From positions 28,272,001 to 28,336,000 of the forward strand of contig OZ296654.1 of NCBI GenBank assembly GCA_965655095.1: a stretch of 64,000 bases of DNA, in the 5' to 3' direction. Shown piece after piece: positions 7,877 to 64,000 of the stretch. The position numbers and the translations under genes are program-made. The notes beneath the pieces are model-generated. The model did no database searches. It was not told the origin of the DNA and saw nothing but the letters and a program-made list of their open reading frames with translations. Source of the stretch: Haplodiscus bocki. Its lineage: Eukaryota. Each line of letters opens with the position of its first letter. Position 1 is the stretch's first letter.

Positions 7877-8280
7877 AGAGTGAGTCGATGAGGTAAAGGT
7901 TCACGACCATGCATGTTTTAAGATAGGCGATAGACCCTGGAACTCCGGCTAGATCCTCCACCTATTTATTAGGATAAGCAACATTTCGGCAATGCACCAC
8001 GGTAGGGAGTGGGTCCTTTGTGTTTTAAGATAGTGTTAAGGTCGGGTCGAAGTAATAAGATAGGGGGTTAGAGTCAAGCTATTATCACAGGGCCCCGAGT
8101 TGGTGTACTATAATAGGGAGCAAGATGTAAAAATAGGGTTTTTTGACAACTTTTCGGCACTGTAAGACATTTTCGAGAAACTTTTTTGCTTTTTCTTCCA
8201 AGTCCCCGTGGACAAATATTGCGGGGCGGTATTGAACTTTACGCCTGTAGATATTGCTATGACTTTGAAGTGAATTTTTT
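7877..8280 (+). repeat. Left TIR of Polinton A (contains degenerate 28-bp units)
   Basis: tgttttaagataggcgatagaccctggaac and ttttcggcactgtaagacattttc..acaaatattgcggggcggta match the reverse complement of 21490-21942. Confidence 0.75.
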
Positions 8281-11200
8281 TCTTCCTTTGAAGAGGCCAG
8301 AGTCTCGATCATAGTGTTTCTCACGCCTATTACAGCAAGTATACGGAATGAAATTTGGTTTTGATTTGGCTGGAAACTCATCCGCACAGTCTCCACTTTG
8401 CAAAGAACTCAGCAATTCCTCCTTAGCTCATGCTAGAGAGAGGGAGTCCTAATCTATCTTCAATGCTTCACTTTTTTTAACATCGCAAAGAAATTTCGCA
8501 AAAAGTGTATTGAAACTGTAGCATTCTGTGCTTTGCCTAATGCAGAAAAAAAACCATCAAATAATGCTTCTTTGCTTTCATTTTTTGACTGACAAGCTCT
8601 ACTTCATACGGCTGATGGTTTACAAAACCCAAGAGTTTAAATATTTTGTTCTTGATAGCCCAATGTGTCTCCTCATCTTTGAAACTTTGTTACTGTATGT
8701 TGACTCCGATCCATATTGTGGTAACAATCGCAACAATTAACTAGTATCATCATTGTAAGAGCCACAACAAAGGAATTCGGGTTCCTACTGCCTTTTTCCT
8801 ACCTTCCACAGCAGGAATGGCAAAGTTTTTGAAATAGTCACTTACAGTTTACTGAGCAACGCGATTGGTTACTTTGCAAACACATTTCAAGCCTAAATAG
8901 AAGAGCATCAACGGTGTACTGATTGTACCATCTTCCAAAAAATTTGACTTGACCATTCTCCTAGGCTGAGTCGAAAATCCTTCACTCTGGCATGTTCTTT
9001 CATACTAAGTCCAATCTCATCTCTGGAAATATTACTGTTCTTGAAGAATTGTGGAATGTTTGCAAGTTTTTCCCGGAGATTGTCAATAACTTCATTGTCG
9101 CATTGAACACAAGCAAACGGAATTCCATTTTTGATATCTTTTCAGAAGTCTTTTGCCTCTGAGAGGCATTTGTTGGGGGAAAATGTCACGCAGAAGTTTT
9201 TTAACGAGAACATTTGTCTTGTATACTTTTCCATCAATCAGATTTCTACCTCTCCAAAACGTTATAACAGATTTCCTAAAAATTTTGTTTTCGTAGTCCG
9301 TCTACTTACGTTTTTCTAACGCCTCTTTGAGTTTGTTTGTCAGTGAGAGAAAGACGAGCTTACTAACATGAACAATATTGATAATAACACCCTAAAGTTT
9401 CAATGACAGTGATGTAGTGTCCACAAAAGCTTCAAACCTCCATTTCTCTCTGTGTACTCATCGTGTAAAGTCTATCAATTCACACTGACTCGCTGAAAGT
9501 AAAGCATGACCATGTTTTTTCCTCATCTTGTTTTGACGATGGCTATTTTTTGAGGACTTAGAATCTAACTCCCATTTCGTCTCCAGACGCACAGTCATTG
9601 CTCGTCACGTGGAGTAAGGACGAAGCTGACAAGCAACAACTCCGTTAATTTATTTTTTTAACACCAGTTCGTTGAATTTCGAAACGGCCTATTGTCCACT
9701 CATTTTTCGTGGTAAATACGTTGTACGGTCCACCATGAATTTCTTTGCGTAATTTCTCCAACAATTTTTTGTCGCCCTCTGTGAAGGGACAAAACTTTGA
9801 TGTAGTTGATTAGTGAAGACAAGACTTGCTCCATTCGTGAAAGTACATCCACTTTAACACATATCAAATTCATTATTGTGGTGAAAACTGACCATCTTTT
9901 GCATAGCCACCAACGTTGAAACAACGTTCTCGTTGTTATACCAGCGTAAAAAGTCTTTGAAGGTGCGTTTTTTCTTGTTCTCACTCACTGATCAAATCAT
10001 GGCCTTTTTCTTGTCCTTGTGATGGTGGCTGAGTTACTCAAATTTCAGTTATGCTTCTTCCGATGTCACACTACCATAAATAAAAATTTATGGAATTCTG
10101 GATAGTTTTTCCCAGGGGGAGCTTTATTGCATAAACTGCTGCAAAAAAACTTCTACGAAAGAAGGTGAGTATTGTTGAGCTTTTCTGGATTAACGAACCT
10201 TTCCTGTGGAAAATGAATTTTTGACTCTAATGACTTCTAGGCTTTCGGGAAAAAATCATGACTGTGGCTGCTGCGAAAAATTTCAACAACTCTAGTTACT
10301 GAAAAACTTCAAACTTGAAAAATACCATCTGATTAGCCACCTTGATCACTGTTGATTCACTTTTTCGTTCAATAACGAAGGATGGTAACAACTTTTTTTC
10401 AGATGATTGTCGTATTATGCACTTTTGAAACCAAAGACAGGAAGAATTTTTCTTGAGCCTTCGAAGAGACCCTGCAAATGGATAAATTGGTTTGATTGTG
10501 TCGGTATAAACTGTGTCGATGCATTCTGCTCTTCTGTTTCTTTGCACAAGTCTTCAATTCACAACACTGGCTCTTTGCGAAAGTGACGCTGAGTAACAGT
10601 GCAGAAATTGTGATTGAGTTTGCTCTTTATATTGGTACTGACCTACATTATTTAAAAATTCAGTGGGATTTGGTCTCTGATGAATAGCATCAACAAATGA
10701 TTCCAGCAAGCCTCTTGGAATGGAATTGAATATAAAGATTGGTTCTTCTCTCGAAATACACGAACAGGATATAGACCGTGGTACATTCTTGCCAATCCAG
10801 GCGGTGAGGTGGTGGTGTTGGTGTAACAAGAAGGGTCTTTCTGCACAAAAAACGATTCCAAATGAAATATTGCCAAGTTTGTAAAGAGCTTCTGATCATC
10901 AGTTTAAAAGATACAAAAGGAGTGTTTTTCGATAGACAGTGCTTCTTCTATTTCATACACGTTCTATGTGAAAACGTGTTTACCTCCCTCTTTGCAATTT
11001 GTTTATTGTGTCTTCAGATTAAGAGATTTATTCATGATTTGAAGACGCGATGGACAACGATAGGTTTTGCAGACGACGTTGATACAGACATAGTAATTGT
11101 GTTTTTTGAAGGTATTAGTCGTAGAGTAATTAGTATTTCCCCATACTTCTCCTCGTACGCTATCCAGGCTCAGATTTGTCAAGCATGACAACGTTGTTTT

Positions 11201-12230
11201 TCAAAATATCTGCTCGCAAAATGTCCTCAACATCAGAGCTTTATTCCATACAATCACCCCGAAAGTTTGCAGGGTTAATCTTGTCGTCAGTATTATCCAG
11301 GTTTCGACTGTTAAACTAGAAGTTTTTTCTTCACGTCTTTCATTCCCAAAAAAATGCAATGCTACAGCCCCGATAAGACAAAAACTATCGTTGTACGGTT
11401 TTCGGGTTTTCTTCTGAACTCTAAAACTTTTGACGGTAAAATCTCTCAGTAACGGATCTGGTAAAAAAGCGTACTCACATCATCTGGGATTTCCTTTGAG
11501 TAATGCAGCAAAAATGTTTCTTCGTTCAGCTGGTAAGTTTTCCGCTTTTTGTTTGCACGTTTTCTTGTGCACGATTCGAAGACATCGGTGTCACTTAGTA
11601 ATTTCGTGCTTCTTGACCTTTTTTCCCTGATAGCTACGAGTTTAGATCGGTCCAACACCCTAAATGTTTTTATAGTAAAACCGGAAACTTCCATTTCTAC
11701 ACCTTTGGAAACAAAATCGAATACTACATTCAACTTAGTTGCATATTGATGACTGTCAAGAACAACATCTAACCTTTGCAAAACGGATTTCGGATCCAGA
11801 CTATCCATAAAAACGTCAAATACTCCATGTCTTGCAATCCCCCTCACAACGTCCTATAGAAAGTGCTTGCATGTTTCTAGTTTTTTTTTGTCAAGTTGTT
11901 GGCATCAACTACTCCCATTACTTGTGTAACATCAACCACTTGAGCGTTGGGTTCTCTCCGTGCTCCATATTTTCTTCATTTAGGACCTCGCAATAGGTGA
12001 AAGCTGTGAAAACATTTTATCCCAACTTTTACAATTACAAAAAGCGCTATCACTTGCTGCAGGGTTCTTCAGAGCCAGAAGATGAATCATGTCATCATGT
12101 CAGGTCGGGGTGTTGTCGGGAAGTTAGTACAAGAACGAAAAAGTTGAGTTCCAGCATAAAAAACTCTTTTGGTGACGCACAAAGTTATGCCAAGTTTTTT
12201 CCGCTGCACAAGTAACTTTCTCATTGAGAT
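8280..12230 (-). pseudogene. Protein-primed family B DNA polymerase (pPolB) of Polinton A, 3'-truncated
   Basis: Frameshifted motifs: TAWIGKNVP..EEPIF, IKVANQ..FKF, YNNxNVV, A-QLRPYS (DxxSLYP equivalent), CVQCDNEV, NPNSFVVA.TM, MDRSQHTVTK, DSGLFK. Confidence 0.8.
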
Positions 12231-14649
12231 TGAGGGAAGGCATTTCAGTACAAATAATTGCAACAGAGGAATCTGAAACAGGCTTTGAAAATTGGAGCAA
12301 CTTGGCTGTATTAATGCAAAAAGAAAACTGGTGGTTAACTTTTATCAGCTGTCACTCTTTACTTTATGCAACGTATGAAGAGTCTATAAAAGGAAATACT
12401 AGTCACATCACTACAAGAAGAGCTGTCAATCAAAGTTGCAATTCGAAAACTGACGTGAGCCTGTTGGCATCCCAATGATAATAAACAAAGGAAACATCAA
12501 AACACATTACGTGAAGCTGTTCTCTTTCACTCTTCAGAGCTAGTTTTGTGTACCACTTTTTTTACTTCAATAGTAATATATTTAAAACAAGATTGTAATC
12601 ACTTACGCTTATAACAAATATGAAAAACTTTAAGAAAAGACTGGTCTACATGAGCATGAAAAGTGCGTTTACACTCAAAATTTGAATTATCCCCGCTATT
12701 GGTACGTCGCTAATAAAACTGACGCGAGAATTTAACACAAATGATCTGAATTTGCTCTCTATCAACTGCCAGAACAAGTTTTCCTCTTTGGTCGGTTTTC
12801 AGAGGAAACCAATCAAGTGGAGTGTGGTTTCAGAGCTAGTGTGCCCGCGAAAGGAACTCAAGTGGAACTTTGATCCTCTATTTAGACGGCAGACTGTGCG
12901 TGGAAAACAATCCACTGGAACAATGTCCCACTATAAGGAGTCAAGTTGACTGAGAAAATACTTCAAATGGAAAATTGATCTTCCGGGAAGGCGACAGCTT
13001 TCCAAAGAAAACCATTCAGCAGATCAAGGTCCCCTGATGGATATACAGCTTGTTCGCGGAGTTTAAATTGTATGTGTTGACCAGTTTTGTCTCAACTGTC
13101 AATCAAAACAGTTCCATTACAGAAAAAAGAAACGATGAAAATTTCACAGAGTCTGAAACAAATAGGTTGAAAGGTTCTGATTCAGAAACAAACGGACGTA
13201 AGTTTTCGCAGTGACATAGTGAACTCATCAAAGCTCCTAACCAATATACCACAGTTTCTGAAAACACTGTCCGAAGACGAATGTTTTAGTCTAATTGGTT
13301 GGAACAAAATGAAATCCATCACTGAACGTCTAAAGCTTCAACCAACCGCATCTCTCCTACCGGTACACGACAAAACTTTTCATTTTGTAGACTAGACTTT
13401 ACCGACTAAAAGCAGTTAAGGTCTGTCAAAGAGCAAAAACCTAAACTGTACAACATACAACTTGTTTCCAGTCAACCAAGACATACCAGGACAACTCCAG
13501 GACAAAACGGATTAAGAGAGTTTTTTAACACAACAACTCTGATGTTTTCCATTCTCAGCATTGAACAGCACGAAGTAGCAGAGGTTCAAACAAGAAAAGT
13601 TTCAGAATCAAGTTAGTCCAATTTTGCGATTTGAAGACACATCAGCATTATATCTTCCGATAAGGGTTGAAGTTTCCCGAAAAAAAAGATTGGTTGCCTA
13701 CTCGACATTTTGCGCGATTTTCTCAAAGGTTTTGATCAAGCTGGAAAACTTTCACAAAATCTACTGCAAAAACACGAAATTGTCATTTGATCTACAAAAT
13801 CAAACGACAATGGCTCTGCTCTTTGCTACAAAAACATCGTTGAAAAAAAGAAAAGACATTCATTTTTTGTTCTACTTTGAACTCAACAAAGCTTGCATAT
13901 TTTCGTATATAAAATCTGAATCACACAGTACTCAATTCTTACTTGCAGAAACTGTCAACATTAGTACGGTCAAAACTCACCACCTCTAAGAGAGCCGTAC
14001 TTACGTTGCATACTAGAGTGAAATATTCCAGAGCAATCATAATGTGGAGCTCATTCCCTTCTGATTATTGATTAGAGAAAAGCAATTTTACCCCCACTAG
14101 ATGGGAACGTGTATTAGCCAGAAAAAAGTGTTCTTGAAAACTTTGCGTGCACAGAAAGACTTTTAAATCTCTCCGCAGCAGCGAATATCACTGTCCAGAA
14201 ATCGAAACCACGTGTCAGGTGCACAATGTTTTCTTTGAAAATCAAAGAACTTCATTTTTTTCGTGTGACCAAAAGATTTGGATATTTGAAGAGATGCTAA
14301 AAACAAATAAAGACATTGATTGAGATGTCTTTTGTCCTGCCAGTTATTTTATTGGATATAAATATGGGTATATTCAAACTTGGAGGAGGACAATAAAAGA
14401 TGCTGCGAATGGCCAGAATGTAACTCGTGCTCTCAAGTTTTGATTTTTCCTTCTCGGGAGCAAAAGACAACCTTGGATTTACTTGCCAGAGTTGGCGTAC
14501 ATTTTTTTTATAGAAAAACGATTCGCGACTACGGAAAAGAGAAACCAAGTCATTCTCGAAAAACTTTTTCACCAGTCACAGTTACAACCGATGTTTGTCA
14601 GAATAGGCTAAAATCAATCCCGTGATAGGGTAATCGTGTCAACTTCCCA

Positions 14650-15300
14650 TTGGTTGGTGAAGTGACCAAGATTTTCATTTTTTTTCATTTTGTACTACTT
14701 CAGCCCGACTTTCAGCAGCCTGACCTTCGCACTTTCTATTGGACTGTTGATTTCGGTTCAAAATCTGTGACTGTGAATATGACTGATGTGGTCCAATGTT
14801 TGACAATCAGTTTAAATGAAATTTTTTTCTCTGTGGGAAACTTGCTACTTCAACAGATACAAAGCCTTTCGAATGGTTATGTACGGAGTATTTCTATAAC
14901 TGAAAATCAGCTAGGAACTATGAACATGCGGGGCGAACTAATTTCAAGTGTAGGTGCACAAGAAAAGGACGCCAGCGGGTATCATGTGTCAGGTCTAGAA
15001 GACATTGTGTTTTTCAGACAAGATCTTGGCTTGATTATGAAAACAGGATTTCGACCACGCAAAGGTTGTACCTTCTCCCCCGGAGCGTTTGACGACTTTG
15101 AAATGGCATTTTTGGTCGAAAACACAATGGCGATCGACTACGAGAAAAACGACGCAAATGCTTACCAGTACCATCAACCCCAGTCTCTGAGTTACCGAAT
15201 GAGTGTCTCAGGTTGCTGAGAAGTTGTCCTTTCGGAACGATACAAAAATGTTCCTGATTATTTTTTCGGATTTTTGTTCGAATGCAATTTTTTTCATATG
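14650..15300 (+). pseudogene. Polinton A accessory ORF (acidic, disordered; function unknown)
   Basis: 189-aa ORF with FRP..TFSP.AFDDFEM..EN inside the element. Confidence 0.4.
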
Positions 15301-17124
15301 GACTATTAGTACTAGACTGGAGAGAGTGACTTTCAAAACTGTTCGAATGAAAAGTTCCCTTTCATAGAGTTTTCTTTCGAAAACTTGCCACAAATGTGTG
15401 ATCTTTAATTCTATCAGCAGGAGCAACTTTTGCATATATCAAGTTCATACGGAGAAAACAAACGAACACCACGGCAAAGTCAAAAGCAAAAGTCCCGGTC
15501 AACATGTGTAGAGGAACTATTGTTTCAACGGCCTGTGTTTTTATCCAGTTGATGAAGAAGCTGTGGGTTTTGAATAAACATTGTATATTGGAAAGAATCG
15601 TTGACAAATGTTGATCAAGTGAAAAATGGTTATGATCTTACATTGAAGATCACAAAAGCTTGATTCAAAAGTTGACTCACTTTAGAAAAAAAAATTGATT
15701 AAAAATGTGACATATCGTTTGAAAAATGATTGAAATTTTGACACTTTGTAACAATTTTGATTCAAATTGTAATTTTTCTCCGAAAAACTTCCCGCAGAAT
15801 CTTGATTCGGAAGAAGTTCAAAAAGTTGCGAAGTTTGACGTTTACACGGGATTAAATCAGTCAAAATGTGAATTGCTGAAGGAAACATTTTAAAAAATCT
15901 GGTAATCCATAATTTGCCCAAAGGTAAACCTGACGCGTTCCGAACTTGTTGATTCAAATTCTGACGCGATGTAGAAAATGTGATTGAAAATTTGATTTTC
16001 AAATTTCCTCTGCAGGTTTTTGGGAAATGATCCTCTATCTCACGTAATGTTAGTACCACACGAAAACAGCCTAGAAATTTAATGGAAACTCTCCTTGTTC
16101 AGCGTCTGGATTGTGTTTGCTTGAATATCCTTGGTCTTTCATTATTAACTGCCCTTTTCATGGTAACTGGAACCTTGCTGGCTAGAAGGTATTTAGTTTT
16201 GACCTATCAATAGATATGCACCCGTACCTTAGGGTTGCAAAAAGGGTAAGTTTTTGTGAATTTGATTTGAAATTTTAAGAGAGAATTTTTTCACTACTAT
16301 TTTTATCCGAGCCATCTAAAAAACAGTCTGCACTTTGTTTTAATACCAATTCAAGTTCAGTCTTTTCAACTTTTTCAATTGTCTCTGCAAATAATGAACA
16401 AACGTTGGCGTTGTTTTCAACTTTTGGAATGACCTCATTAGATGCTCTTTGTGCTTTTTCCTATCCAATACTCTGGTTTGTCGATTCAAACCAACTGAGC
16501 TCTGCACAACATCAAACTCGTGTCCACTAAGGGCAACAATTTTTGCCACTGAATCGGTAGTTGAAAATTGCATAAAGACAGTTCAAAGATCGACATGTGA
16601 AGCAGAAGCCCTCGACTTCTCTAGCGATTATTGTGTCCTAATAGCATAATGTGATATCTTCAAATGTGCAGAAAGCACGTCTTGTTGTCGTGGTGCGCAA
16701 TACAGTCGTTTTCGGTAATATTATCTTTTTCGTTTGTATTTGTAAAATTCAGATGACATTTTTTTTCTAAAAGTTTCAAGTAAAAATTAAAAACCATTTC
16801 CATCAAATTATCATTTAAACTATTTTTAAAGAAGTTTTTTCAACTGAGTCTGAAAAACAAATAATCACCATTTTCTGTACAAGCGTACTATAAAACGAAA
16901 GTGGTTGCATATATGGGATTAGTTCGTTGCAAGCACACAGAGAAAAGAAAATATTTTTTCTTCGCTGAAAAATTACGTCATATTGACTGAAAAAGTTATC
17001 AGGTATGGAGAAGCATATGCAAGGAACACATTGAAGCTCAAAAAATTTTCTTTAACGTTCATTTTCGGAAACAAATCACTTCTTTCAATTATGAGCTTGC
17101 TATCTCAAAAACTAAAACCCATAA

Positions 17125-17690
17125 ATTAAAACACTACTGCTTCAAGGTAAGAAATATGTGGATTTTGGCATTGGTAAAGACACGCTTTTGAAAACTCTTT
17201 TAACAGCCCGAGAAGGCTCCAGTTTCTTATTCTCTTGGACGTTAAGCTCAATGTTCCCAAGAGAAATGAGAACAAACAATTTCGATTGGTCCAAAGTCTT
17301 ACAGTCGGAGATGCAGGCATCAAACATTTCATTAGACTAGGAAACCTGCTATTTCTTGCAGCAGGAAACTTAAGCAAAGAGGAAAACTTGTCTCCCATTC
17401 AGGTGCCAACCTTCTCTAAAGATGTGGTTGCACAACGCAGGCCGACTCACAAAGTAGTGTTGATGTAAAATATCGTTGGAACAGAAAAGTTTGAGTAACA
17501 CTGCCGCAGTACAATGCGGATACGCGCGGAAGTTCATCTTCTGAGAGCTAAATAGTTGCACGAAAGAATAAAGAAGAAAAACTTCAAAAATTTGTCTGCG
17601 TAAATTATGAATCTGATGAAATTTTGTTTCTACAGTTTGTTATGAATTCTGTATTCGATAAAGTTAGTACTTCTCAACTCCTTTTTATTG
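17125..17690 (+). pseudogene. Polinton A ORF, possibly a PC4-like nucleic-acid-binding protein
   Basis: YVDFG..., LDVKLNV.K...FRLVQSLTVG..., F.QQ-like..VNY pattern across frameshifts. The fold assignment is inference. Confidence 0.4.
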
Positions 17691-18240
17691 TCCTGCCAAA
17701 GTGATTGCAGTTTTTTACTCTTTATCTTTTTTCTTCCTGTTTGAGACAAAAAAAGTTGGGACATTGGAGATTGCAGAAACCAATGGAGAATAGAAATAGA
17801 AGCATTCTCTATTGATATAATAGAATCTTTTGACATGAACTGGATCACGACCTTCTACTTGGTAGAGCTAGTAGTTATGGACACTCCTACATAGAAATCT
17901 TTTGTGCTGTCTCAAAGATTTGACACTACATAAAATACAAAAGACGCTGCCGGTTTAGTGGAGTCACATACTGGCAAAAGATTTGCTTACTGCTATATGA
18001 TCGGACGAGGTCTAAACTCATAGTTGCTTGGTCTAGTGATTAGACTACTGTTTTAACTTTGCATGAAGCTCGTTGTGCCTTCTATTTTCACTTTGTCGGT
18101 TTCTGCAGCAGTATCTCTTGCCATATACTGAATATCGAGAGAAAAAAGCAGATGGAAATAATACTTAGGAGTTGAAGTTTTTTGTGGCGGGATGAATCAA
18201 GGTTACCCGTTTGGTTCTCCGAAAAAACAGAAATTCGTAA
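17690..18240 (+). pseudogene. Probable minor capsid (penton) remnant, Polinton A
   Basis: Very degenerate FLP..GHW, FAY, EARC.F.F and TRLVL segments in the expected order. Confidence 0.4.
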
Positions 18241-18869
18241 AAGTAGCTCTTTCGGTGTTGAAGATAAGGACATGGAATTGTCTGGGTTAGTGGAAGTTTG
18301 AATTACAGTGAGCTCCCAAACAATCTGCCAAGGGATGTAAAGGATGAACAATTTGCGAAAGGACCAGGAAATTGCAAAATTAACAGAAAATTTATGGACA
18401 TAATTGTCGAAAGCTTGGTTTTTCCTGGTTGCCCTGAAAATAAGGAAATTGTCATTTAATTAAATTGCCCTGGTTGCGCTCTAAAGTAGACAATGAAACT
18501 TCTCTAATGTGGAAAGCATTGTCTGTATCACCGTATTCGAATCTTTCAACTCCATTCAGTTTTTCTGAGACTTCTTACGAACGAAAAAGCCTACAAGCTA
18601 GATGATTGATTAGTGAGATAAGATTCATCCAGGCAAGACTAACTTTGACAACAACAGTCAATATAGAAAAGCGTGAGATTGGAGATTGTTTGGGACAATT
18701 CTGTTCCACATCTCTCACTGTCTCTTTTTAAAAATTTTGCGTTTTTGCTGAATGTCTCTGATTGCTTTTGAACAATTCATTTTCCAAAAACTTGTGATGG
18801 ATCATCTATTAAGATGAATTTTTTTAATAGCTCAGTTAAAAACATTTTAACCTGACCAACACTGTAAGT

Positions 18870-19560
18870 AAAAGATGTTCTTCATCAAATTGCGTCTTTA
18901 TAAATTTGGTTGAACCCGCCAAGTTTGGAAAACCGCAACCTATTTACAATTGGTTGAAAAATGGATTGTATCGGTTAACATTTGACAGAAGAGAAAAATT
19001 TGTCAACAATCTCAGGTACTTTTCTCAGATAAGCAGAAAAAAATAGAAAGTTTTGAGGTTTCTGAGGTGTAATTTTTGAATTTATTGATTCGCTCGGAAA
19101 AAAAATTTATAAAATCATATAATAGTGAACCTTCGACGACTTTTGTGAGATTTGCAATTTCACCCGCTTGTTACCACGAACAGACGAGAGAATACACTGA
19201 AGTACAAGGATTGCGTCCGTTTATTTAACGTTTTCTACCCCTGTATGTTTGATGCACTGAAATTCTTCGGACGATGAACACAAAAACAAATCCACTCTGT
19301 ATCTCTTGCAAGTATAATCCCGCAATTGCAAAAAGCATTTCTTTGAGCTTTGTTCGGGAAGAGTTTACCCGGTTCCTGTAAGAGTGCACAGTAAATCTGC
19401 TCAAAGGAAACCTGCGAAACACAAAAATACATCACCTGGCCAAGTTTCAAACACAAGTTTGCTTGCTTCATCCAGAAGAAGCAACATGGAGGCCAAGGAG
19501 AAACCTTCTGCCATCCGAAAAAGACTTGCGACTAAATAATTTATTGTTCCTCCAGCCATT
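18870..19560 (+). pseudogene. A32/FtsK-like packaging ATPase, Polinton A (internal deletion)
   Basis: CVFINLVEPAKFGKPQPIYNWLK (decayed Walker A), EFIDSL, FDDFCEICN (Walker B), DDEH, basic C-terminal tail. Confidence 0.7.
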
Positions 19561-19859
19561 CACATTTGTTTGAATGTGGATCATTTTTTCTTGTTCCTAT
19601 TTGTGTGTAGAACAAGAGTTTGACTACGTAATCAAGCACTGCGAGGGCACTGCACCTTTAAGTGAAAGCGAACAACCTAACAGTGACGAAGGGAGACAGC
19701 TATGCTTTCGAAAGCTTCCTATACACAATTTACTCTGGCTAGACGTAAATTCAAGAGAGTGGAAGTTTTTCATATCTTCAAAAACCACTTTGGTTCATGT
19801 TGACGAACAAGCGAACGATTCTAACGGTTTAGGGTGTCTAGACTTGTTGGATAGATTCA

Positions 19860-21040
19860 CAGAAGCAAAAAGATGCATCGGAACTATTAAACTGATTTCA
19901 GACAGATTTTCTAAGCTTTGAAACTGAAAGAGGCGGAAGATAGTGTTTACGAAAGTTACAATCCCAAAAAAGTTAGAGAAGCGTGAGGAAGAACGAAAAA
20001 TGCTGCAGCAGATGCTGAAAGAATGGGGAAAATTACTCCCTTCTGTCGGGTAACTCCTGTAAAGAACATTTTTCTTTCAATTTTGTCCACTATTGAGGTG
20101 TGCATGAAAAACAGCAAAAGTCAACTCCATTGGATTGTATCCGCACAAGTCTTACATTTCGATGAACTTTGGGAAGTCATTTTTGTATACTATGACGTTC
20201 TGAACTGCAAAAGCTAAGATTATATGGAATGTGCAGAGAACTTTTTGGACGCACCATTTTTGGACCCCTTTTCTGCAAGCAGTCGATACCTGTTTAGTAG
20301 ACCCGAAAGTTTCTTGTTCTATGGCGAATTGGGTATTGACTTATCCTCCAGTTTTGAATTTGGAGATGCAATTTTAGGAATTAGGCGACCACCCATCAGA
20401 GCAGGATCTAATTTTTAAAAGAAAGGCGACAACCTCGACGTTACTGATGGAATTGTTGAAAATTCGTTTTACGCTCGTAATTTTGTTCTCAAGGACGTTA
20501 TTAGAATCGAAGTATCGATATGCTTGGTTTCTTCCCTGTGGAGTTCAACTAATTTGAGACTCTAGCACAGATTTTCAATATTTCTGCTAGATAAAACCAG
20601 TTCATTCAACAACACATGTTTCAAATGCTCCAGTTCTTTGAACTGCCACTGCAATGAATACAAACTCCTCCTTCACTGGAACATACACTGAAATATTTTT
20701 CTTGTTTCAGCAATTCAATCTCAAACTTAGTCAGGTATAAACTCTGATGCTGCTGATAATCGCTGCTGTTATGTTAACAAAAGTAAAGCAATGAATTTCA
20801 AGATTGTCTGCTTTCATTTCCCACTGATATTTTCAAAGATCACAATGGACTAATGATTGATTTGACTTCAATGCAAGGTGGACTTGAACATTGTCAATAG
20901 CTAGGGCTAATTGAAGAACCAGTGAGATTTCAGGTATATGTTTAGTTCACACTAGAGCACTTTACTGAATTCAATGTGAAGGGAAAATGATTGTCTTCGC
21001 TTTCAGCTGACAAGTTCGACGTTGTTGGAAAAATTATAAG
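19860..21040 (+). pseudogene. Major capsid protein (double jelly-roll), Polinton A
   Basis: NIFLSILSTIEV, GLYPHKSYI, SRPESFLFYGELGID, FN.FETLAQ, AMNTNSSFTGTYTE, DAADNR..KAMNF, FKDH..IDLTSMQ, DKFDVVGK. Confidence 0.78.
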
Positions 21041-21042
21041 AA

Positions 21043-21125
21043 ATGGATAACGTTGCACTTCAGCAAGCTTTCAATCATACTCTTCTTTTCAATCACAGGT
21101 ACAGGGATTCATCCACCTCAGATTT
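21043..21125 (+). pseudogene. N-terminal stub of adenain-like protease, Polinton A
   Basis: MDNVALQQAFNHTLLFNHRYRDSSTSD immediately after the major capsid gene, then truncated. Confidence 0.5.
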
Positions 21126-21489
21126 CGGTCAAAAAAATTTCGAGGAAATTTTTGCCAATATAGAAAAACAACTCAGCAAAATGTAGGAAAAGAAATGGAT
21201 AATTAAAAACCTGGTCACTAGCTGTAATTTGCAGACTCTCACGGACGTGAAAGGTATAGTTTTCTCCTAAAGCTTTAAAAAGAGATGATACCAGAGCCAC
21301 TAGAGTCCCATGCGAGTGTTTGCGGTTTCTACTAGATAACGGCGTAAAATGTTGTTTTTTCTTTAAAAATTTGTACCATCTATTTACCTTTTCAAAAATT
21401 TTGGGAAGCAACCCACTAGCAATGCGTCACAACACTATCTGCGTCCGTAATATACGAACGCAAACGTTATTACTAACAATAAACGTGAT

Positions 21490-21942
21490 AAACTTCCGAC
21501 AGGCGCTGTATTTAGTACCGCGCCATAATATTTGTCGGCAGTTCTTCAGAAAAAGTTAAAAATAAATAATGAAAATTCTCACAGTGTCGAAAATGTTACA
21601 TTAATACATACCCTTACATTCTTCTCCCTATATTCTTACACTACCTAACTCGGCAAATGTCGGGGTATACAATGACTGGGACCCTCTGCCTTAATACGCT
21701 GATCCAGACGCCGTATCTTAAAACACTGAGTCGATCACGCTAATTTGATGCAATGAGCCGTCTTCAACACTAATTCAATACCTTTACGAACCCATTTTCT
21801 ATCATGATACTTTCCCGAGCTGAAGCCCATCTGAATACACATGTGAAGGACCTAACTTGGGTTCCAGGGCGTATAGCTAATCCTAAAACACGAAAAGTCA
21901 TCCAAACTCCACCCCAGCCCCCCAGCTTATCGGCTCACTACT
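21490..21942 (-). repeat. Right TIR of Polinton A
   Basis: Inverted homologue of 7877-8280 ending in ACTACT. Confidence 0.75.
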
Positions 21943-22011
21943 TTACTCTTGACGTCTTACACAGTGCAGTAAACGTTCTTTGATGTTGGGTATAGTATTT
22001 GTTTTTGCTAT

Positions 22012-32992: not shown

Positions 32993-32997
32993 ACTAA

Positions 32998-37690: not shown

Positions 37691-37707
37691 AAAAAACACT
37701 GATAAAA

Positions 37708-38980: not shown

Positions 38981-38989
38981 TTTCATAGT

Positions 38990-54226: not shown

Positions 54227-56069
54227 TTGAGCATTGACTGTGTTAACGATAATGGGAACTAACAGCTGTAGCGTTTCGCAAATGTAATTAGAGATCTAAG
54301 AAGCAACTTACTTTTTGGACGAAGAGTTCTATTTCAATTCACTTGGTCAATCAATTGTACTCGCATTGACGTGGTACCTTCAGAAAGTATTAAAATGTTC
54401 CACTTTATTTATTAGTACGTACACTACTATTCCTCTGATGCAATTGGTTTGAACAGAAGCTCCACTTTCTTGTAGATAAGTGTCTGCCTTTATTTGTTTT
54501 ATCTGTTTCATTGCGGCCCAAAGCAAAGTTAGTTTTGTCAAAAATCACCGAGACGCTGATTAATCATACATTATTCATTTACTATTGAAGGAACTACTAT
54601 AATCTGATTTTTGGTGCTATGGCAAAGGGTAACAATCTCATGCTCGCCTGAAGGAAATACATCTACACAAACATCAAAATGCAAATAGCTTTTGTCCGAT
54701 TAACAATCCCATACTCTATCAATTATGTTTCATGCAGCAAACTATCAGAACCGATATAAAAGCCACTTTGATTAATTATTTCTTCCCTCACAATATCAGC
54801 ACAACAACTCACGAGGAACATTGGAAATTGATGCAAAGAGAAACACCAGTTGAGGAACCGAAACAACCTTCCACGAAAAAACTATTGAGACAATTTCACA
54901 TAAGCATGTACTCTAGAAGAACAGACTCAAATGACGTTTCACATAACTCCTTGTTCCGACCACAAAAGTGAACAACGAATTACGGGACGAAAGTAAAAAT
55001 GAATTTAACGATTTCTACGTTGCACACATCCCAATTCAACCAAGTGTACAGACGAATGAACAGGATTGAAACACATCAGATGATACATTGTTTCTCATGC
55101 CAGTAATTTGTGTACCGAATCACCCATAGGGACCTGTTATAGAAATTGAAAATCCGCGAGGAGCATTCACTAACCAACGTAATCGAAATTTTGTGAGCTT
55201 TATGAACGATTACAAAAAAAGTCTAAAATGAATGAGTTCTGAAAAAAATCAACATGAAAACTCTATCGTGGTGTCAAAATTCCGGCGTCGAGTAAAGCTT
55301 ACTTCAAAACTTATATTTGTCTTTCGGTGCCTTCCATAAGAAAAGCGTTAGTTCGGCGATTAATAACACAAACACCTCCGTTGTTGAAAAAAACGTTTTC
55401 CCATTGCAGTCATTCCATCAAAACAGCACCAGTTCGTTATATAATTCATCTACGAGAACTGCCAATTTTGGGTATTGGAAAGTAATTGTGAACGCAAGTC
55501 AGCAGCTGCTGAAAAACCACATGGTTCATTATAAATAAACTCATTAAGAGACCATAACGAGGACCGAAAAACACAGTACCTAACCTTAGGTTATACGGCA
55601 CCCAAACCCTACGCCGTAACATCAATTATCTGGCCTAAAATTGACTTCGTAACAAATAATTTTTGCTGTTCTATACCGGCTGCCTCAAAGCAGTAAATCA
55701 AAGTACTCAAATAAAATCAGACTTAAAACCTGTCGACACTTGGATTTATCTCGCTGTCTATCTCATTTGAAGTCATGCCAAATTTTAGCAATTGATAGTG
55801 AAAATCTTTTTCTTTCGTCGCTACCCGATTCTTCTGGGTGGTGCAAACCAGCAAGTTCAACCAACTGACTAGTAGGTGTTCGACTCTCTTCAGGCAATTT
55901 TGTTTTCACTGGTGTAAACTTAGAATTGGAAAAAAAGCAGGCTCGCTACAAAATTACAAGGGCTGAAACAGTCGTTGGGAGGACTCAGTGAAAAAAGTTC
56001 TGTTGGCTCGGCAGTAGGGAACTTGATGTGTGAACGATCAAGATTGTCTTGTCAACGTTATCATATGGT

Positions 56070-56575
56070 AGTAGTTGAAGATTGAGCCGACCAGACGGGG
56101 GTGTGGAGGCCCCTATCTGTTAAGATAGGCTATAGCGAGCCGACTCGAGCCGAGAGCCGACAAGGGACCTCCACGCTAGCCGAGAGGTTTCGGGCGACGT
56201 GATACTCGATTCTGATTGGCTGACAACTAGGGCGACGTAATACTCAATTCTGATTGGCTGACGAAGTTGAAGGGTTTTTTCGTGCTCGATTCTGATTCGC
56301 TAACGAAGTAGGAGGGTCCTTCGTGCTGGATTCTGATTGGTTGACGATAATTGTTTGATTCTGGACACGAGCCGAGTGTGTGCGACAAGGTATAAAGATA
56401 GGCAAGGGGCTGAATGACTCATTTTCGGTACCGTGAGACTTTTTCGAGAATGTTTTTTTGAACTTTTTCCAGGGCCCCCGCGCGGATAAATATTACGGCG
56501 CGGACCAATTATGACGCTTGCGGTTAATTTCTACGCCTGCGGCTACTCTTTTAACTTAATGCAATGTGAGGACGA
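56070..56575 (+). repeat. Polinton-type terminal region (AGTAGT start) related to the TIRs of relic A
   Basis: AGTAGTTGAAGATTGAGCCGA..GGGGGTGTGGAG..TTAAGATAGGCTATA; four TTCTGATT(G/C)G repeats; 56422-56505 matches 8151-8232. Confidence 0.7.
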
Positions 56576-58455
56576 ACTTCGGCAATGTATTAAGATAGTG
56601 TATAGTTCGATATTGTATTAAGATGGAGTATAATTTGGAAATGTATTAAGATAGGGTAGAATTTGGTAATGTATTAAAGTAGGGTCTAGATCGGTAATAC
56701 ATTAAGATAGAGTTTAGTTCGGTAATGTAAAAAGATAGGGTATAGTTCGATAATAGAATAAGATAGGGTATAGTTCGGTAATGTATTAAGATTGGTTATA
56801 GCTCGGTAATGTATTAAGATAGGGTATAGTTCGATAACGTAACAAGATAGGGCATACTTCGGTAATGTTTTACGATAGGGTATAGTTCGGTAAGGTAATA
56901 AGATAGGGCATAAAACAATAATCTTTTAGCATAGGGTACAGTTTGGTAATGTCTTAGGAATGGCTATAGCACGGTAATCTATTAAGATAAGGTAAGATTC
57001 AATAATGTGTTACGATAGGGTCTACTTCGGTGATGTATTAAGATAGGGTAAAAATTGGTAATGTATCAAGATAGACTATAGTTCGATAATCTATTAAGAT
57101 AGGGTATAACTCAGTAATGTGTTAAGGTGGGGTATAGTTCGGTAATGTTTTACGATAGGGTATAAATCGGTAAGATATTAAGATAGGGTATAGTTTTGTA
57201 ATGTATTAAGATGAGGTATAGTTCGGTAGTGTATTAGGATAGGCTTTAGTTCGGTAATGTATTAAGATAGGGTATAGTTCGGTACTGTATTATGATTGTT
57301 TTTAGCTCAGTAAGGTATTAAGATAGGGTATAGTTCGATAATGTAATAAGATAGGGTGTACTTCGGTAATATATTTCGATAGGGTTTAATTTGGTAACGT
57401 ATCAAGATAGGTTATAGTTCGATAATGTATTAAGATGGGGTAAAACTCGGTAATGTATTGAAATAGGGTGTAGTTCGGTAATGTTTTTAGGTAGGGTATG
57501 AATCGGTAATGTATTAAGACAGGGTATAATTTGGTAATGCATTAAGATGGGTTGTAGGTCAGTAATGGAATAAGATAGGGTACAATTTGGTAATGTATTA
57601 GGAGTGGCTAGAGCTCGGTAATGTAATAAGATAGGGTATAATTCGATAATGTATTAAGATAGGTTATAACTCATTAATGTGTTAAGGTGGAGCTTAGTTC
57701 GGTAATCTATTAAGACAGGGTATAATTCGGTAAGGTATTAAGATAGGGTATAGTTTTGTAATGTATTAAGATGGTGTATAGTTCGGTAATGTATTAAGAT
57801 AGGGTTTAGTTCGGTAATGTAATAAGATAAGGTATAGTTCGGTACTGTATTATGATTGTTTATAGCTCGGTATTGTTTTAAGATAGGGTATAGTTCAATA
57901 ATGTAATGAGATGGGGTATACTTCGGTAATGTAATAAGAAAGGTGTAATTTGGTAATGTGTTGAGATAGGTAGAATTTGGTAATGTATTAAAGTAGGGTC
58001 TAGTTCGTAATGTTTAGAGATAGGGTATAGTTCGGTGATGTATTAAGACAGGGTATAGTTAGGTAATGTATTAAAATTGGTTATAGCTCGGTAATGTTCT
58101 AAGATAGGGCATAATTCGGTAATGTATTAGGATAGGCTAAAGTTTGGTAATGTATCAAGATATGGTCTACTTCGATAATGTATTAAGATAGGGTATGCTT
58201 CAGTAATGTACTAAGATAGATTATACTTCGGTAATGTCTTAAGATGGGGCTGAGTTCGGTAATGTATTAAAATAAGATATCATTTGGTAATGTAAATAGA
58301 TGGGGTATAGTTCGATAATGTTTTAAGATTGATTTTAGCTCGGTAATGCAAAAAGATAGGGTATTGTTCGATAATGTATTAAGATAGGGTATACCTTGGT
58401 ATTGTGTTAGGATGGGGTTTAGTTTTCCAATCTATTAAGATAGGATATAGCTCGG
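56575..58455 (+). repeat. 28-bp tandem satellite, ~67 units
   Basis: Consensus TAAGATAGGGTATAGTTCGGTAATGTAT, head to tail, no spacers. Confidence 0.97.
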
Positions 58456-59759
58456 TTGCACCTGCGGAACAGTAATTTAGCAACAAACCTCAAACAAACG
58501 TAAACATTGTAGCAACTTGACTGAGGCAACGCAAAAGAAAATTGGTGAAAAGCTGCAGCCTGTGTTGTCTATTACAGAAAACACTATATGGAAAGACCAC
58601 AAAAGGAAAGACCAGCCTTTAAAAGGAAGACTAACCACGAAAAAAAAACTGCACGAGCTGTCAATCTTTTTCTTTTAAGCCTCAGGATACAGTTTTGACC
58701 TAATGTTATGTAGAACGATTGATTTTAAGTGCGAAAAAGTTAGTTGGAGAGAACAAATGCAAACAAAAACCTTGTATACCCTGCACATTTACATTGATGC
58801 AGACGATAGAAAATATGATTTTGCACTCATGCGCCTTTATTGTACGCCTGCATGTACTCATTTGCTATGTCAACACATGTTTGCAACCTCTTAATAACAG
58901 ATTTTGTTAAAAAGTCCGGATTTGAGTCTTGTTTCTGATCCTCGCAAGGTTTTGAGAGAGAAGCAAGGACGTCTGATAATAAAAAAAGATTGGGTTTTTA
59001 CTTCGCTGAACGTACAATGATGGAGCATCATATTAAATGTTGTGTACTGCAACATTTTACGTTCAATGAAAGCCGCATTTCTTCAACTAGAAAAAGCAAT
59101 GTTCACCAATGCAACTGTTGTTCTCATGTTTACCATCAACACTCCTGGTCCTTATACTCAGAGTAAACAATCAAAGACATTTCATGCCAAATCTTACTTG
59201 AAGGTAAAATGCGAGAAACTAAGTCTCTGATAAGGAAAAATGATTGTATGCGTGTTACAGATCTCAATCATGCAGTCAGACATTTATGCCAAGCAGTTGA
59301 CGTTTGTTCTAAAGTGCTGAAGGATTTTCATGACTATTGTCTCTTTAACATGACTGATCAATTAGTCGTGGGAATTGTGTTTAGTTGTTTCTGATTGAAA
59401 AACTACAAAAACATAGTTTTGCGCTACAAAATGACCAGTAAGCAATACTTTTGCGTCAAAAAGTCACTGAAATAATAAAAAATGGTTTCAATGCACAGCA
59501 ATGGATTCTGCACGACTGTTAGATACCATAACAAATTCGAAAAAGTTGACAGATAAACTGTGTTTTTTGAGGCTTCCTTTGGGTTCTTTCACCCAAGTCA
59601 TGGAGTTTGAAGACGAACAAGCATTCAAAATGTTCGAGACAGGAGTCTTAATTTGAAAATCAGAGAACATGAAGCCATATCAACTACTTTTTACTTGGGT
59701 AGCAATATGCTTAAAGCTAAATGATGAGCTCATCTGTCTCGCGGCTTATCCAAAACGAA

Positions 59760-60430
59760 TGCCGAGTAATGCCGACGGCATATGCAGGAAGGTAGGCTAA
59801 ATGTTGAGGGGACCGGCTCCACAGGCTATCATATTACATTGTGGAACAAAATTGGCTAATATCGGACCTTCTAAAACATTGACGGGCTCATACACTCATT
59901 TTTTTGCCAAAATGCCAACCCTAACTAAATTCCTTGACTCGGAAACCCAAATTCAAAGCACATATTTTTATATTACCGAAGTACACCCTGTTCTTATACA
60001 TTGGTTCGTAGTGTACGGTATCCTTTTACTTCGCTGAAGTACAGCCTGTTTTGTTTTATTGTTGAGCCAATCACAACAATATTACACTGCTGAGCTATAC
60101 CCACTCCTAAAACATTGTCAACGTATACCCTCTTTTATCACATTGCAAAGCAAATCCCAATTTCAATATATTGCTGAGCTATACCCAACCCTAACACATT
60201 GTTTAGGTATACCCAACTTAATTACATTGCTGAGGTAAACCGTAACTCTTTATATTGCTGAGTTATATCCACTCCTAACACATCGTTGAGGTATAACCAG
60301 CATTGATACTTTGCTGAGGTTTACCCTATCTTAGTACATTGTCGAACTATGGCCGATCTTACTATACTGCTGTCAGTTTTCGCGAAACGTTGTCGAAAGC
60401 CAATCAGAATCGAATATTACGTCAATCAAT
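59760..60430 (-). repeat. Diverged inverted 28-bp array plus CCAAT-repeat head
   Basis: acattgctgagctataccc units; gccaatcagaatcgaatattacgtc at ~60399-60423 is the reverse complement of the 56.2-kb motif. Confidence 0.8.
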
Positions 60431-60999
60431 AGCACAATCAAAAATTGACCTGACAGAATTACAAACAAACAACCTAATACCTACATGTACTTTTATGGGC
60501 ACAAATTGAAGCCTTTGCCGTAAAAAAAATTCTGTGGACCAATCATCAAGTAACAGTTCCAGCGAGCTGATTCATGAGTATCAAATATGTAAAACCATTC
60601 CGTAAGTCGTTAGGAGCGAAAAACGATCAATATAGATCGAGAAAGGCTGGGAGTGACTACATCTTTAATTGTTATTTAAAAAAAACTGGACTTAACCTGT
60701 GACAGGAAACCACCTCCATAGATGGATAATAACCCGACCGCCTTCAACTACATAACTAAAAAGTAGTACAGTTTATGTTCTTACGGGTCAAAGTTAAAGA
60801 ATCCGGACACTCAAAAGAAGCTACAAAGATTAATGGGTAGATAACAAGGATGCAAATTGCATGAAGGTTGCTTTGTAACTTGTTACTTGCAAGAGAATAT
60901 TTTCCATCTTTCAGGTGAGGTTAAAAATTGAAAAACACCTAATTGTTGTCAACTAAAACTGCAGTCAAGTTTCAGGGGTCAATTGAGGAAAGTAAAGAA

Positions 61000-62700
61000 G
61001 TAAAGAGAGGTAAGTCTGGGAAGTTGTTGAGAAATTGGGACACTGAGTATAATGAAGCGTCCCAGTTGAACATCTCATATAACGTCGGAAAATGATTCTC
61101 CTAGTTTGTGTTCCACAAATTGCACGAGTAATTCTTTCGGAGCGTTTGACGGAAGACAGTTGAGTTTTAGTAGTATAAAAGAAGTTTCTGAATTAAACGT
61201 AAATTTCTAGAAACCTGACTCAAGCAGTGGAAAAGAAATAATGGCAAAAAAATTTAGCGAGTGTTACTCATTACTTTATATTAGATATGAAATGTCCAAA
61301 AAGGGAAAGAGTAACAACGAGAGGAGCTGTCAATCAATTTCTTTCAAACCGACTATATAAAATTAAAAACTAGTTACAAGCATGAAAGTGCTTGTCTGCG
61401 AAAGCAACTCAAGTGGAACAAGTTTCACTTTCATGGAGACAGACGGTCGGGGAAAAAATTCAAGGGGATTTACATCGCAGACAGTGTGTCTGAAAAAATC
61501 ACACCAGAGGAACAAAATCCTTTGTTAAGTCGACAAGTTGTCTGGAGGAATTACTCTGAACAAATGACTGAAAAACAAAACAGTGTTAAAACTTGCACCA
61601 AGTCCCCAAAATTGAAAACACCTCCCATTAATGGAAATCGTTGTAGCTTCGACCACAAAACGAAAAGTTGTCCAAAAAAAAGCAGGTATGAATCGGTTAA
61701 AATCATACAAAAGCAGGAACTTGGTACTCTGAAAAACCATTCTTTAAAAATTGTTCCCAACAACAGCAACTCGCTTCTTCCATCTACCAACGTACCAAAC
61801 CACTGGTGAAGTTTCTCAACATTACCTGCTCACAATCCGACTTCAGTGCTCAACTTTATCGAAATTGAATAAATTCTCCCTTTGCAGGAAGCAATGTGCA
61901 ACTACAATAAAACCCAAGTCTCTGCTTATGATCCTACAAATCTTGCAATTCATTCTACTTTGCGTCCAGAAGAAAATCTTATATCAAATTGTGGTCAGAA
62001 CATCAAACAGACTGTCTCTTTCGATGACATTGTGCAATTAATTGATGAAGAGAACAACGTGACCTATGTAGATTTTGATTGTGGTATTACTTTGTACCTT
62101 GAAACTCCTACAACAATCAGCCCGATCAACCGAAAAGGGACTTATATTTCCAGAACCTGTGAAAAACCCAAGTGTATTCCCAGCAACGATCAACATAACT
62201 AATGTTTTGATGAGCAGCATAGATCCAATACCTTTTTGAACCCGTACAATTTATGGGAGGTGGTTGCAGCAGCTCTTATGTCACTCAACCACATTAATGA
62301 TAGACACTCTATGTCCAATCAGTACCCTCAACCAACAATCCAACAATCTAGAACAGTCTCATATCCGGTGTTCTCTTCCTTGCGAACGATGGACAGTAAA
62401 AGAGGAATTGCGCGTGAGCTTTGCATTCTTTCGAAGAAATTACCTAACAGATGGACGAGTGGACGAAACAGTTGCCACGGTTGAAGAGTTGAGTGATCTC
62501 TGGAAACCCTGAGCAAGGGATGGATTTCCACCATTTGTGATGAACTGTATTTGTATTTGAAGGTACCTATTTGTTTCAGTTGTTTGATATCTATTGTATG
62601 CTAATGCAACATTTGTTTTTTTTTGAAAATTTACTTTTTCTGTCCCCTTTCTTTGATGAATTTGAGTTAGAAGTAAAATTTCATCGAAATCTTCTATGTA
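61000..62700 (+). mobile_element. Fragment homologous to the accessory region of Polinton A (12.3-13.4 kb)
   Basis: Shared gagctgtcaatca, agcatgaaa(a)gtgc and aactcaagtggaac blocks in the same order. Confidence 0.55.
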
Positions 62701-63419
62701 AGGTACGACTCCGTAAGGTAGCCGAAGCCACAACCTATCTTAGTACATTGCAGAAGTTCACCCTAGCGTAATACATAGCTGCGCAACCTCCTCAGCCACC
62801 ACTCTCTAAAACCTACTTCAATAATTGATCAGGTCGGTTCTCTGCCTGATCATAGGACATGACGTCATGATGAATGAGTCATTCAAATCAGACTAATTAT
62901 CTCGTACGTTGCAAACCTCTTAGTCTCTAGTAGAACCATGTTGAAAAGCATTCCTTATCTACGTATATCCATGAAGAAACTCGGATCGGATTGTTTTTCC
63001 AATCTAAAATCTGACGCATTTTAAATCTTTTATATCAAAATCTGGCTCGTTGTGAAATTTCTGTTTCAAAAACTAACACGTTAGAAAATTTCAATTCAAA
63101 ATCTGACAGGTTTTAGGACTTTTTCTCCGAAATTTGATTTTTATCTTGTTTCGCAGGTTCTGACTGAATGATGATTTGTTCTGTCAACGTTACAACCAAC
63201 CTATTGTAGAAAGGAGAAGTAGAATACAATGCGTGTTATAGATTTAGTCGCCAGATAAACAACTGAGAGCTGCCACACGTCAATTTGTCTCTGAATGTGA
63301 GGGTTAGCATTATGACAACACACAATTTTCACAGTAAAGACAGTCAGAACTCTGTGGAGCATAGAATGTAGCAGCTCAGCAGTTTTATTCAAAATACACT
63401 TTTGTCAAAAAGATTGGGA

Positions 63420-63910
63420 ACATCTCAGCAACGGAATAAGCTAAGGTATGCCCCAGCAATGTTATAAGGTGAAGAACAGCCCAGCAATGTAACAAGACAG
63501 GTAATACGTAAGCAATGTTTCAAAATTGGGAGCTTTTTAGCAATGTAATAAGAGAGGGTATACATCAGCAATGATTTAATGTTGGGACTAGTTCAGCATC
63601 GTAATGAGGCAATATATGACTCAGCAATGTTATGAGATTAGGAACAGCTCAGCAATATATTGAGACCGGGTGTACCTCAACAATGTGTTAAGATTCGGTA
63701 TAGCTCATCAATGCATCAAAATTGGAAATTTTTCAGCAATGTAATAAGATTGGCTTTACCTCAGCAATGTGTTAGGATTGGGTGTAGTCCAGCAATGTAT
63801 TAAGGTAGAGTGTACGATAACAATGTGCCAATGCTGGGTATATCTCGACAGAGTAATAAGGCAGCGTATACCTCAGCAGAGTAATAAGATAGCGTACACC
63901 CGAACCTTTG
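63420..63910 (+). repeat. Diverged 28-bp array (ctcagcaatg subfamily)
   Basis: cagcaatg(t/a)..taagat..g recurs every ~28 bp; short inverted units also at 62720-62780. Confidence 0.8.
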
Positions 63911-64000
63911 TATATTTCTGCAATGTAAAAGTGTATGGTATGGTTTTGGGTTTCCGAGTCCGTAACTTGAGATAACATTAAATATTAAGGTTTTGGCAAA

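Follow-up and report, generated by a model that had tools for sequence, protein, structure and literature searches.

A 28-bp repeat array in the terminal inverted repeats of a Polinton family and in its core-gene-less palindromic derivatives

Results

A palindromic element at the right end of the window

The window analysed here, a stretch of 64,000 nucleotides from a genome of 1.5 Gb (C7:28272001-28336000), carries near its right end a 1.9-kb array of 28-bp tandem units (Table 1). As the original prediction had described, the array starts ~500 bp from an AGTAGT terminus, the exact distance being 508 bp from position 56070 to the array delimited by Tandem Repeats Finder (TRF). The element that begins at this terminus is 14.6 kb long and runs past the window to window-relative position 70650 (C7:28342650, L030:6650). 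It is almost wholly an inverted repeat, with arms of about 6.9-7 kb, the mirror image lying just past the window and including a second outer array of 27 units and an AGTAGT end. The element is flanked by a 6-bp target-site duplication (TSD) in which TATGGT on the left (56064-56069) and CATGGT on the right match at five of six bases. Both termini thus show the AGT/AG-repeat end motif of Polintons, although AGTAGT alone is weak evidence, as it occurs 18 times on the plus strand of the window. However, 13 other inspected ends start with the motif at the base aligned to 56070, and nearly all of the 40 scored genome matches of a terminus probe align from base 1; because other copies begin at the aligned base, 56070 is the true end.

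A tblastn search with eight family proteins at E 1e-4 detected no Polinton core genes in the window element, and we therefore file it as a non-autonomous derivative rather than a full Polinton. It shows neither the polymerase B, retroviral-like integrase, ATPase and capsids of Polintons nor terminal inverted repeats (TIRs) in their range of 0.05-1.5 kb, the inverted arms being ~6.9 kb long. Structurally it is a foldback element, with long TIRs that contain internal tandem repeats and little or no coding centre. Coding copies are matched by three pieces of the arms: the inner TIR, a stretch that precedes the polymerase gene and an intergenic repeat region. The outer head holds a 42-bp repeat at 56243-56338, and the right arm has no equivalent of about 56159-56507. 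A motif that we take to be CCAAT-like is repeated in the head with the 42-bp period (56190-56340) and occurs once, inverted, in the arm (60393-60423).

The related arrays that the original prediction had noticed at 59.8-60.4, 62.7 and 63.4-63.9 kb do exist, but are not separate from the first: they are modules of the same 14.6-kb element and recur at the same places in other copies. What had been missed is that the carrier is a core-gene-less giant palindrome with the inner arrays as its parts.

Table 1. Features of the palindromic element and of its coding relative, in window positions
Feature	Position	Strand	Remarks
Left TSD copy (TATGGT)	56064..56069	+	right copy CATGGT follows C7:28342650
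Left arm and start of centre, 14.6-kb palindromic Polinton derivative	56070..64000	+	ends at C7:28342650
Outer TIR head: AGTAGT end, terminal block, inner block common with coding Polintons	56070..56577	+	
Outer 28-bp array, 67 units	56578..58456	+	TRF, unit profile
Inner part of family TIR	58461..58797	+	66-73% identical to the same part of coding copies
Arm segment without match in tested coding loci	58798..59700	+	99.0% identical to right arm; 87% at best to other scored copies
Second 28-bp array, more diverged, opposite orientation	59819..60346	-	TRF, unit profile
Segment resembling (65-71% identity) the non-core DNA that precedes the polymerase gene in coding copies	61016..61556	+	
Broken copy of orphan ORF, ~222 codons, in both arms	61810..62545	+	
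A few 28-bp units	62728..62800	-	unit profile
Central 28-bp array, in loop between arms	63424..63943	+	TRF, unit profile
Polinton A, old decayed coding family member	7868..21950	.	polymerase 8287-11416 (-); ATPase 18843-19530; major capsid 19879-21047

Coding relatives with the same terminal repeats

The ends of Polinton A lie at about 7868 and 21950, 8-9 bp outside those given earlier, with flanks GACGTT/GACGTC (read by eye). It matches six of the eight family protein queries, including polymerase, ATPase and capsid and excluding integrase. Alignment bears out the earlier observation that the 56070 end has blocks in common with both Polinton A TIRs (8151-8229 vs 56422-56503: 74%, E 1e-6). These TIRs also contain the few decayed units attributed to them: one unit per end, at 7985 (+) and 21621 (-), passes the unit profile at a threshold of 0.01 false hits per kb, accompanied by one to three weaker units (6-9 bits) in near-register.

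Other coding copies with this TIR have the polymerase (pPolB), integrase, packaging ATPase and double-jelly-roll capsid of Polintons/Mavericks. The integrase was recognized by Pfam (rve, 8e-8) and the ATPase under the cut-off (Pox_A32, 2.5e-4); the polymerase has no direct Pfam match and resembles a protein with family B motifs that is itself PF03175-positive (E 1e-12), and the capsid is nearest to DJR-like clusters, which we treat as a lead. In the search for an adenovirus-like maturation protease, none of the candidate ORFs of the coding copies had a Pfam match, and a comparison of the family polymerase with phages and solved structures gave nothing significant. In the L103 polymerase, residues 689-751 show weak similarity to Vsr endonuclease (E 0.1-0.2). 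The core genes could be annotated only with natural family proteins as queries, a Pfam scan of window segments being insufficient: among 34 stop-to-stop segments, the cut-off was passed only by a reverse transcriptase fragment at 1280-1567.

The original prediction had depended on intact members having the unit, and coding copies do: it occurs in 28- and 30-bp forms with a common core, and its location within the TIR is constant at both ends. In the five coding pairs whose heads are shortest, the arrays contain 9-18 units, in a mix of the two forms.

The outer array and its unit

TRF describes the outer array with period 28, 67.2 copies and 72% matches. Its 67 units have a mean pairwise identity of 74% and are 85% identical to the natural unit at 57250-57277. 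Identity between units is flat with distance (0.72 at lag 1, 0.73-0.77 elsewhere), so that neighbouring units lack the excess similarity by which concerted evolution is recognized in classical satellite DNA. A small peak of similarity at lag 19-20 is accompanied by near matches of units 19-26 to units 39-46, suggestive of a 20-unit duplication. The right-arm outer array comprises 27 units, compared with the 67 of the left arm.

Across copies, the columns of the array agree at 84%, compared with 92% for columns of the neighbouring arm. Conservation along the unit is uneven: positions 7-11, 14-15 and 17-19 of the window units keep 0.86-0.95, whereas several others drop to 0.67-0.82. This pattern is concordant between the window units and 405 other units (rho 0.73, the units of related copies not being independent), and its correlation with that of the inner arrays is not significant (rho 0.23). 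Such unevenness is compatible either with a constrained binding core or with inherited variants. That the unit is a multiplied binding site for an element or host protein is a tentative idea, to which we give a little less than even weight. To our knowledge, the function of Polinton TIRs beyond the terminal bases has not been tested; the variation in unit number and among unit columns marks a candidate cis-signal in them.

A family of palindromes

Three other elements analysed end to end, of 14.5, 19.5 and 24.2 kb, have the same plan as the window element, and the eight family proteins found no core genes in any of the four palindromes, compared with six of eight for Polinton A. The derivative is characterized by AGT-repeat ends, 6-bp TSDs, arms of 5-7 kb or more, two to three arrays per arm and one orphan ORF, and its arms contain pieces of the coding element's non-core DNA. 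All 16 scored family pairs have TSDs matching at five or six of six bases. This count omits L018/L021, in which the right end is truncated, L105/L106, in which no left end was found, L131/L132, for which the ends were not inspected, and three older coding pairs without exactly placed ends (L059/60, L071/72 and L094/95). First-look candidates, which are not a copy count, numbered 2,829 for an inner-arm probe and 1,220 for the terminus, which suggests that the genome contains on the order of a thousand such elements. We considered whether the fold-back axis always falls within an array: in most of 13 loci the arrays occupy or adjoin the loop, but the centres are irregular and two loci have no inverted match. 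One central array includes a 1,569-bp, 56-unit duplication.

The orphan ORF, of ~222 codons and present once per arm, is decayed, and we found no assignable function for it. At E<=0.001 it retrieves 1,030 database proteins, and the best 120 of these 1,030 are 79-93% identical to it and unnamed. It had no match in Pfam, in the Atlas or in the 32 coding sequences tested, and its predicted fold is unusable (pLDDT 29). With an uncorrected pN/pS of 0.71 and 74 of 83 indels out of frame, its sequence offers no evidence of current function.

Several rearranged or composite copies were encountered. An 18-19-kb palindrome at L038:1120-L040:434 (C4, about 88.366-88.385 Mb) belongs to a different Polinton family, so palindrome formation is not limited to one family; each of its arms, which are 98.7-100% identical, contains a polymerase gene, the ends read AGTAT, the 6-bp duplication is perfect and the loop holds a copy of the orphan ORF. 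At L107/L108 (C2:79.43-79.45 Mb), a coding family member is inserted, with a perfect duplication, in the orphan ORF of a core-gene-less palindrome. Terminal segments are duplicated in tandem or inverted at L097/L098, L017, L019-L021 and L029, with extra ends 1.5-4.6 kb apart; one of them is a coding element's capsid end, copied in inverted orientation over 3.5 kb.

Probable homogenisation of the arms

Between the arms of core-gene-less pairs, the pooled mismatch falls from 7.0% at the terminus and 6.4% in the inner head to 1.9-2.9% inside of the array, compared with 13-20% between different elements. The TSDs of ten core-gene-less elements mismatch at 8 of 60 bases (13%), in excess of the inner-arm rate (binomial p 2e-5 against 1.9%, 3e-4 against 2.9%), and those of six coding elements at 1 of 36; taken alone, the comparison of core-gene-less with coding elements is not significant (7/48 vs 1/36, Fisher p 0.13). 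A 401-bp inner-arm probe matched the partner arm at about 100% and the next scored copy at 87% (40 of 2,829 candidates scored); 20 of the other 38 scored matches come as inverted pairs, and no close siblings of the palindromes were found among the 40 scored. Because the inner arms are ~2% apart, the TSDs 13% and the nearest other scored copy is 87% identical, the arms have likely been homogenised in place, by gene conversion from arm to arm after insertion. Three older coding pairs, whose TIRs are short, are 89-91% identical in the corresponding segment of the inner TIR. A counter-case is L131/L132, with inner segments only 87-90% identical, and several centres stand at 81-88%.

Alternatively, the palindromes could be recent insertions of diverse old lineages, their arms identical from fold-back replication and not converted since. 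Fold-back copying would be expected to yield identical arms, and L122/L123 is indeed 98.5-100% identical throughout. Yet even L122/L123 has a mismatched target duplication, TSDs (13%) and terminal blocks (7%) have aged where inner arms have not, no close sibling appears among the scored matches, and the indels of the orphan ORF are mostly out of frame (74 of 83), all of which renders recent insertion an improbable explanation.

Conversion of the arms after insertion, which we prefer, may depend on the arrays. Termini are 98% identical outside equal arrays (11 and 11 units) and 80% in the window element (67 and 27), which suggests that unequal array length blocks their conversion; a pair with 12 and 13 units and termini at 90% is a counter-case. 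We also considered arm-to-arm exchange as a way of copying array units and rejected it: in the window element, the 67 units of the left arm and the 27 of the right have no colinear match, and conversion is thus not supported as the driver of array growth.

Linkage of the unit to the element

The natural unit has 508 exact matches genome-wide, compared with 0 for the control. Grouping by eye of the 63 matches on C1 gave 47 loci, 40 of which were scored as outer arrays; of the remaining seven, six had been examined before and the last was omitted. In 37 of the 40, the terminal block is found 169-802 bp upstream and correctly oriented, so that the originally proposed linkage of arrays to Polinton termini holds; three arrays instead lie next to other sequence of the family. 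The terminal block had no match in 200 kb around other Polintons, used as control loci. The best PF03175 loci represent other Polinton families, with no head, unit or tail in the 20 regions examined.

All 40 outer arrays could be classified, 22 of them in core-gene-less copies and 18 in copies where polymerase or capsid adjoins the TIR, with median lengths of 22.5 and 5 units, respectively (Mann-Whitney p 6e-6). Because the five short-head coding pairs reach 9-18 units, the expansion over coding copies is ~2- to 4-fold and not categorical. A sequence word taken from the central array matches exactly at 181 places, 22 of them on C1; 19 regions cover 20 of the 22, each flanked by element modules (19/19), and the remaining two matches lie in loci already examined. 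Altogether, 0 of 59 sampled array loci on C1 are free-standing, in a sample that required one exact unit, favours long, little-decayed arrays and could miss diverged free arrays.

These counts bear on whether the unit might be an independent dispersed satellite, captured by Polintons or escaped from them and now spreading on its own, as its 508 exact copies, arrays as long as 156 and 219 units and one small contig that is largely array could suggest. However, long free-standing arrays, the mark of a classical satellite, are absent from the 59 sampled loci, the longest array (219 units) still sits between head and tail within a perfect target duplication, and the position and orientation of arrays are fixed; we regard an independent satellite as very unlikely. 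The 28-bp repeat is a regular constituent of the TIRs in one family of Polintons, carried and spread by the element. The earlier proposal that the element seeds and disperses a satellite family therefore stands as far as the location of the unit in a Polinton TIR and its dispersal by the element are concerned, but not in according the satellite a life of its own.

Support from reads

Palindromes are a known artefact of long-read sequencing, and either fold-back chimeric reads or polishing that copies one arm onto the other could in principle have produced those described here. L016 contains a 2.7-kb direct duplicate, 99.9% identical, that might be such an artefact, and no read-derived contig spans a whole arm. 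Against this, the flanks of the palindromes are unique, non-mirrored and marked by target duplications, and the arms differ in array length and by a deletion. Between arms, 33 differences were counted over 1.3 kb, and both arm versions occur in read-derived contigs, which contain the left-arm version over six distinguishing sites and, separately, a right-arm substitution and gap; one sample may be the assembly source and the second is a different sample. An artefactual origin is highly improbable.

Discussion

Comparison with known systems

Non-autonomous Polintons are reportedly on record in Repbase and in the 2006 work of Kapitonov and Jurka. Published Polintons have AGT-type ends, 6-bp or 5-8-bp duplications and TIRs of 46-1,447 bp (vertebrates) or 100-1,500 bp (PMC8097293, PMC10748475). 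The palindromes agree with Polintons/Mavericks, as portrayed in the available text of these sources, in their AGT-repeat ends, 6-bp TSDs and size of 14-24 kb, and the window element has its TIR in common with relatives coding polymerase, integrase, ATPase and capsid; it differs in having no core genes, arms of ~7 kb and several 28-bp arrays per arm.

The nearest working analogues in the literature accessible to us are both cut-and-paste elements. Tetris of Drosophila virilis, with its TIR-220 satellite, is likewise non-autonomous, with long TIRs in which internal tandem repeats grow into kb arrays inside the element (PMC4079207); it is tentatively assigned to Mutator, with arrays of up to 66 copies, 8-10-bp duplications, an unknown helper and three complete copies according to the accessible part of that report. 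Here, by comparison, the presumed helper is a virus-like Polinton in the same genome, the elements are complete with both ends and no escape of arrays was seen. Galileo of Drosophila mojavensis also extends its TIRs by growth of tandem repeats and recruitment of internal sequence; conversion between its TIRs has been proposed and its repeats are described as extra binding sites (PMC3573991). It differs in belonging to the P superfamily, with 7-bp duplications, and the available text of PMC3573991 contains no test of conversion against target-site age. A foldback of such a cut-and-paste superfamily (Mutator or P), with ends that merely look like those of Polintons, would have the same architecture of long TIRs, internal tandem repeats and no transposase (in the accessible part of PMC4079207), but is refuted, and can hardly be right, because the TIR and the ends are common to copies coding polymerase, integrase, ATPase and capsid and the inner segments match those copies, with duplications of 6 bp, not 7-10 bp, and a Polinton rather than a DDE/THAP transposase as partner.

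Inverted arms much more alike than age predicts are known from sex-chromosome palindromes (PMC3723533) and nematode inverted repeats (PMC1803023); as far as the available text of these papers goes, those cases concern few gene-bearing loci, whereas here many copies of a mobile element are dispersed, each with a TSD as a clock. Satellites of Crassostrea gigas also form scattered short arrays inside mobile elements, among them the 1,656-bp CgiSat52, listed as similar to Polinton, but their carriers are mostly Helitrons, stand-alone arrays exist, and the accessible text describes no Polinton TIR array or palindromic carrier (PMC8268682). We found no paper on palindromic non-autonomous Polintons or a Polinton TIR satellite, although subscription papers, Repbase and supplements may hold such entries.

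Proposed origin

Taken together, the observations make it probable that the array is a variable-number repeat in the TIR of one Polinton family, found here in a 14.6-kb core-gene-less palindrome that was likely copied and inserted with proteins supplied by coding relatives; since then, gene conversion has likely homogenised its arms. Polintons are said to replicate by protein priming through a paired-end intermediate, following Kapitonov and Jurka (2006). The palindromic derivative may have arisen by deletion and fold-back copying during such protein-primed replication. It would then have spread in trans in one old burst, to judge from copies 13-20% apart and the lack of close siblings among those scored; the ends point to mobilisation by the proteins of coding relatives. 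The arrays are longer in the derivative and differ between arms, changes that could reflect slippage or unequal exchange. After insertion, the inner arms would convert each other, while arrays of unequal length and the heads outside them would mostly escape.

The structure and size of the palindromes are also compatible with a snap-back defective interfering genome. Like snap-back/copy-back defective viral genomes, they are near-complete palindromes that keep their termini and have no coding capacity, and they differ, on the part of PMC13506859 available to us, in being chromosomal, inherited and dispersed, whereas those genomes are transient and mainly from RNA viruses. At 14-24 kb, the palindromes are similar to the coding pairs seen (about 12-19 kb). 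A bolder and doubtful possibility, drawn by analogy, is that snap-back defective interfering genomes of a polintovirus are preserved in them as germ-line fossils; these would have kept both origins, multiplied a cis-acting 28-bp binding site, retained a helper-like packageable size and out-copied the helper, leaving about a thousand self-correcting palindromes on all chromosomes.

The foldback architecture with tandem repeats is hereby extended to Polintons, with a likely helper in the same genome, and a scattered 'satellite' turns out to be transposon cargo. The satellite itself is of less interest than the palindromes, mainly because of their size, their likely number and their self-homogenising arms. 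If the arms are indeed converted, the many parallel palindromes of 15-25 kb would allow arm-to-arm conversion to be measured outside sex chromosomes for its rate, tract length and bias, with the TSD of each palindrome as a clock and unequal arrays as possible barriers.

Other features of the window and genome

The window contains a second decayed, AT-rich Polinton of another family at 27270-42901, with inverted ends at 27270-27409 and 42762-42901, an integrase at about 36.9-37.6 kb and a polymerase at about 40.4-42.6 kb; an isolated unit-like match at 37329 within it is probably due to chance. With 10,957 first-look candidates genome-wide for the PF03175 polymerase family, this is an extremely Polinton-rich animal genome. 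A 200-base assembly gap lies at 45230-45429, and the reverse transcriptase fragment mentioned above (Pfam RVT_1) is part of a decayed stretch at 977-2766. Finally, two copies of another interspersed repeat, in opposite orientation and 70-78% identical, are located at 22919-24100 and 50508-51738.
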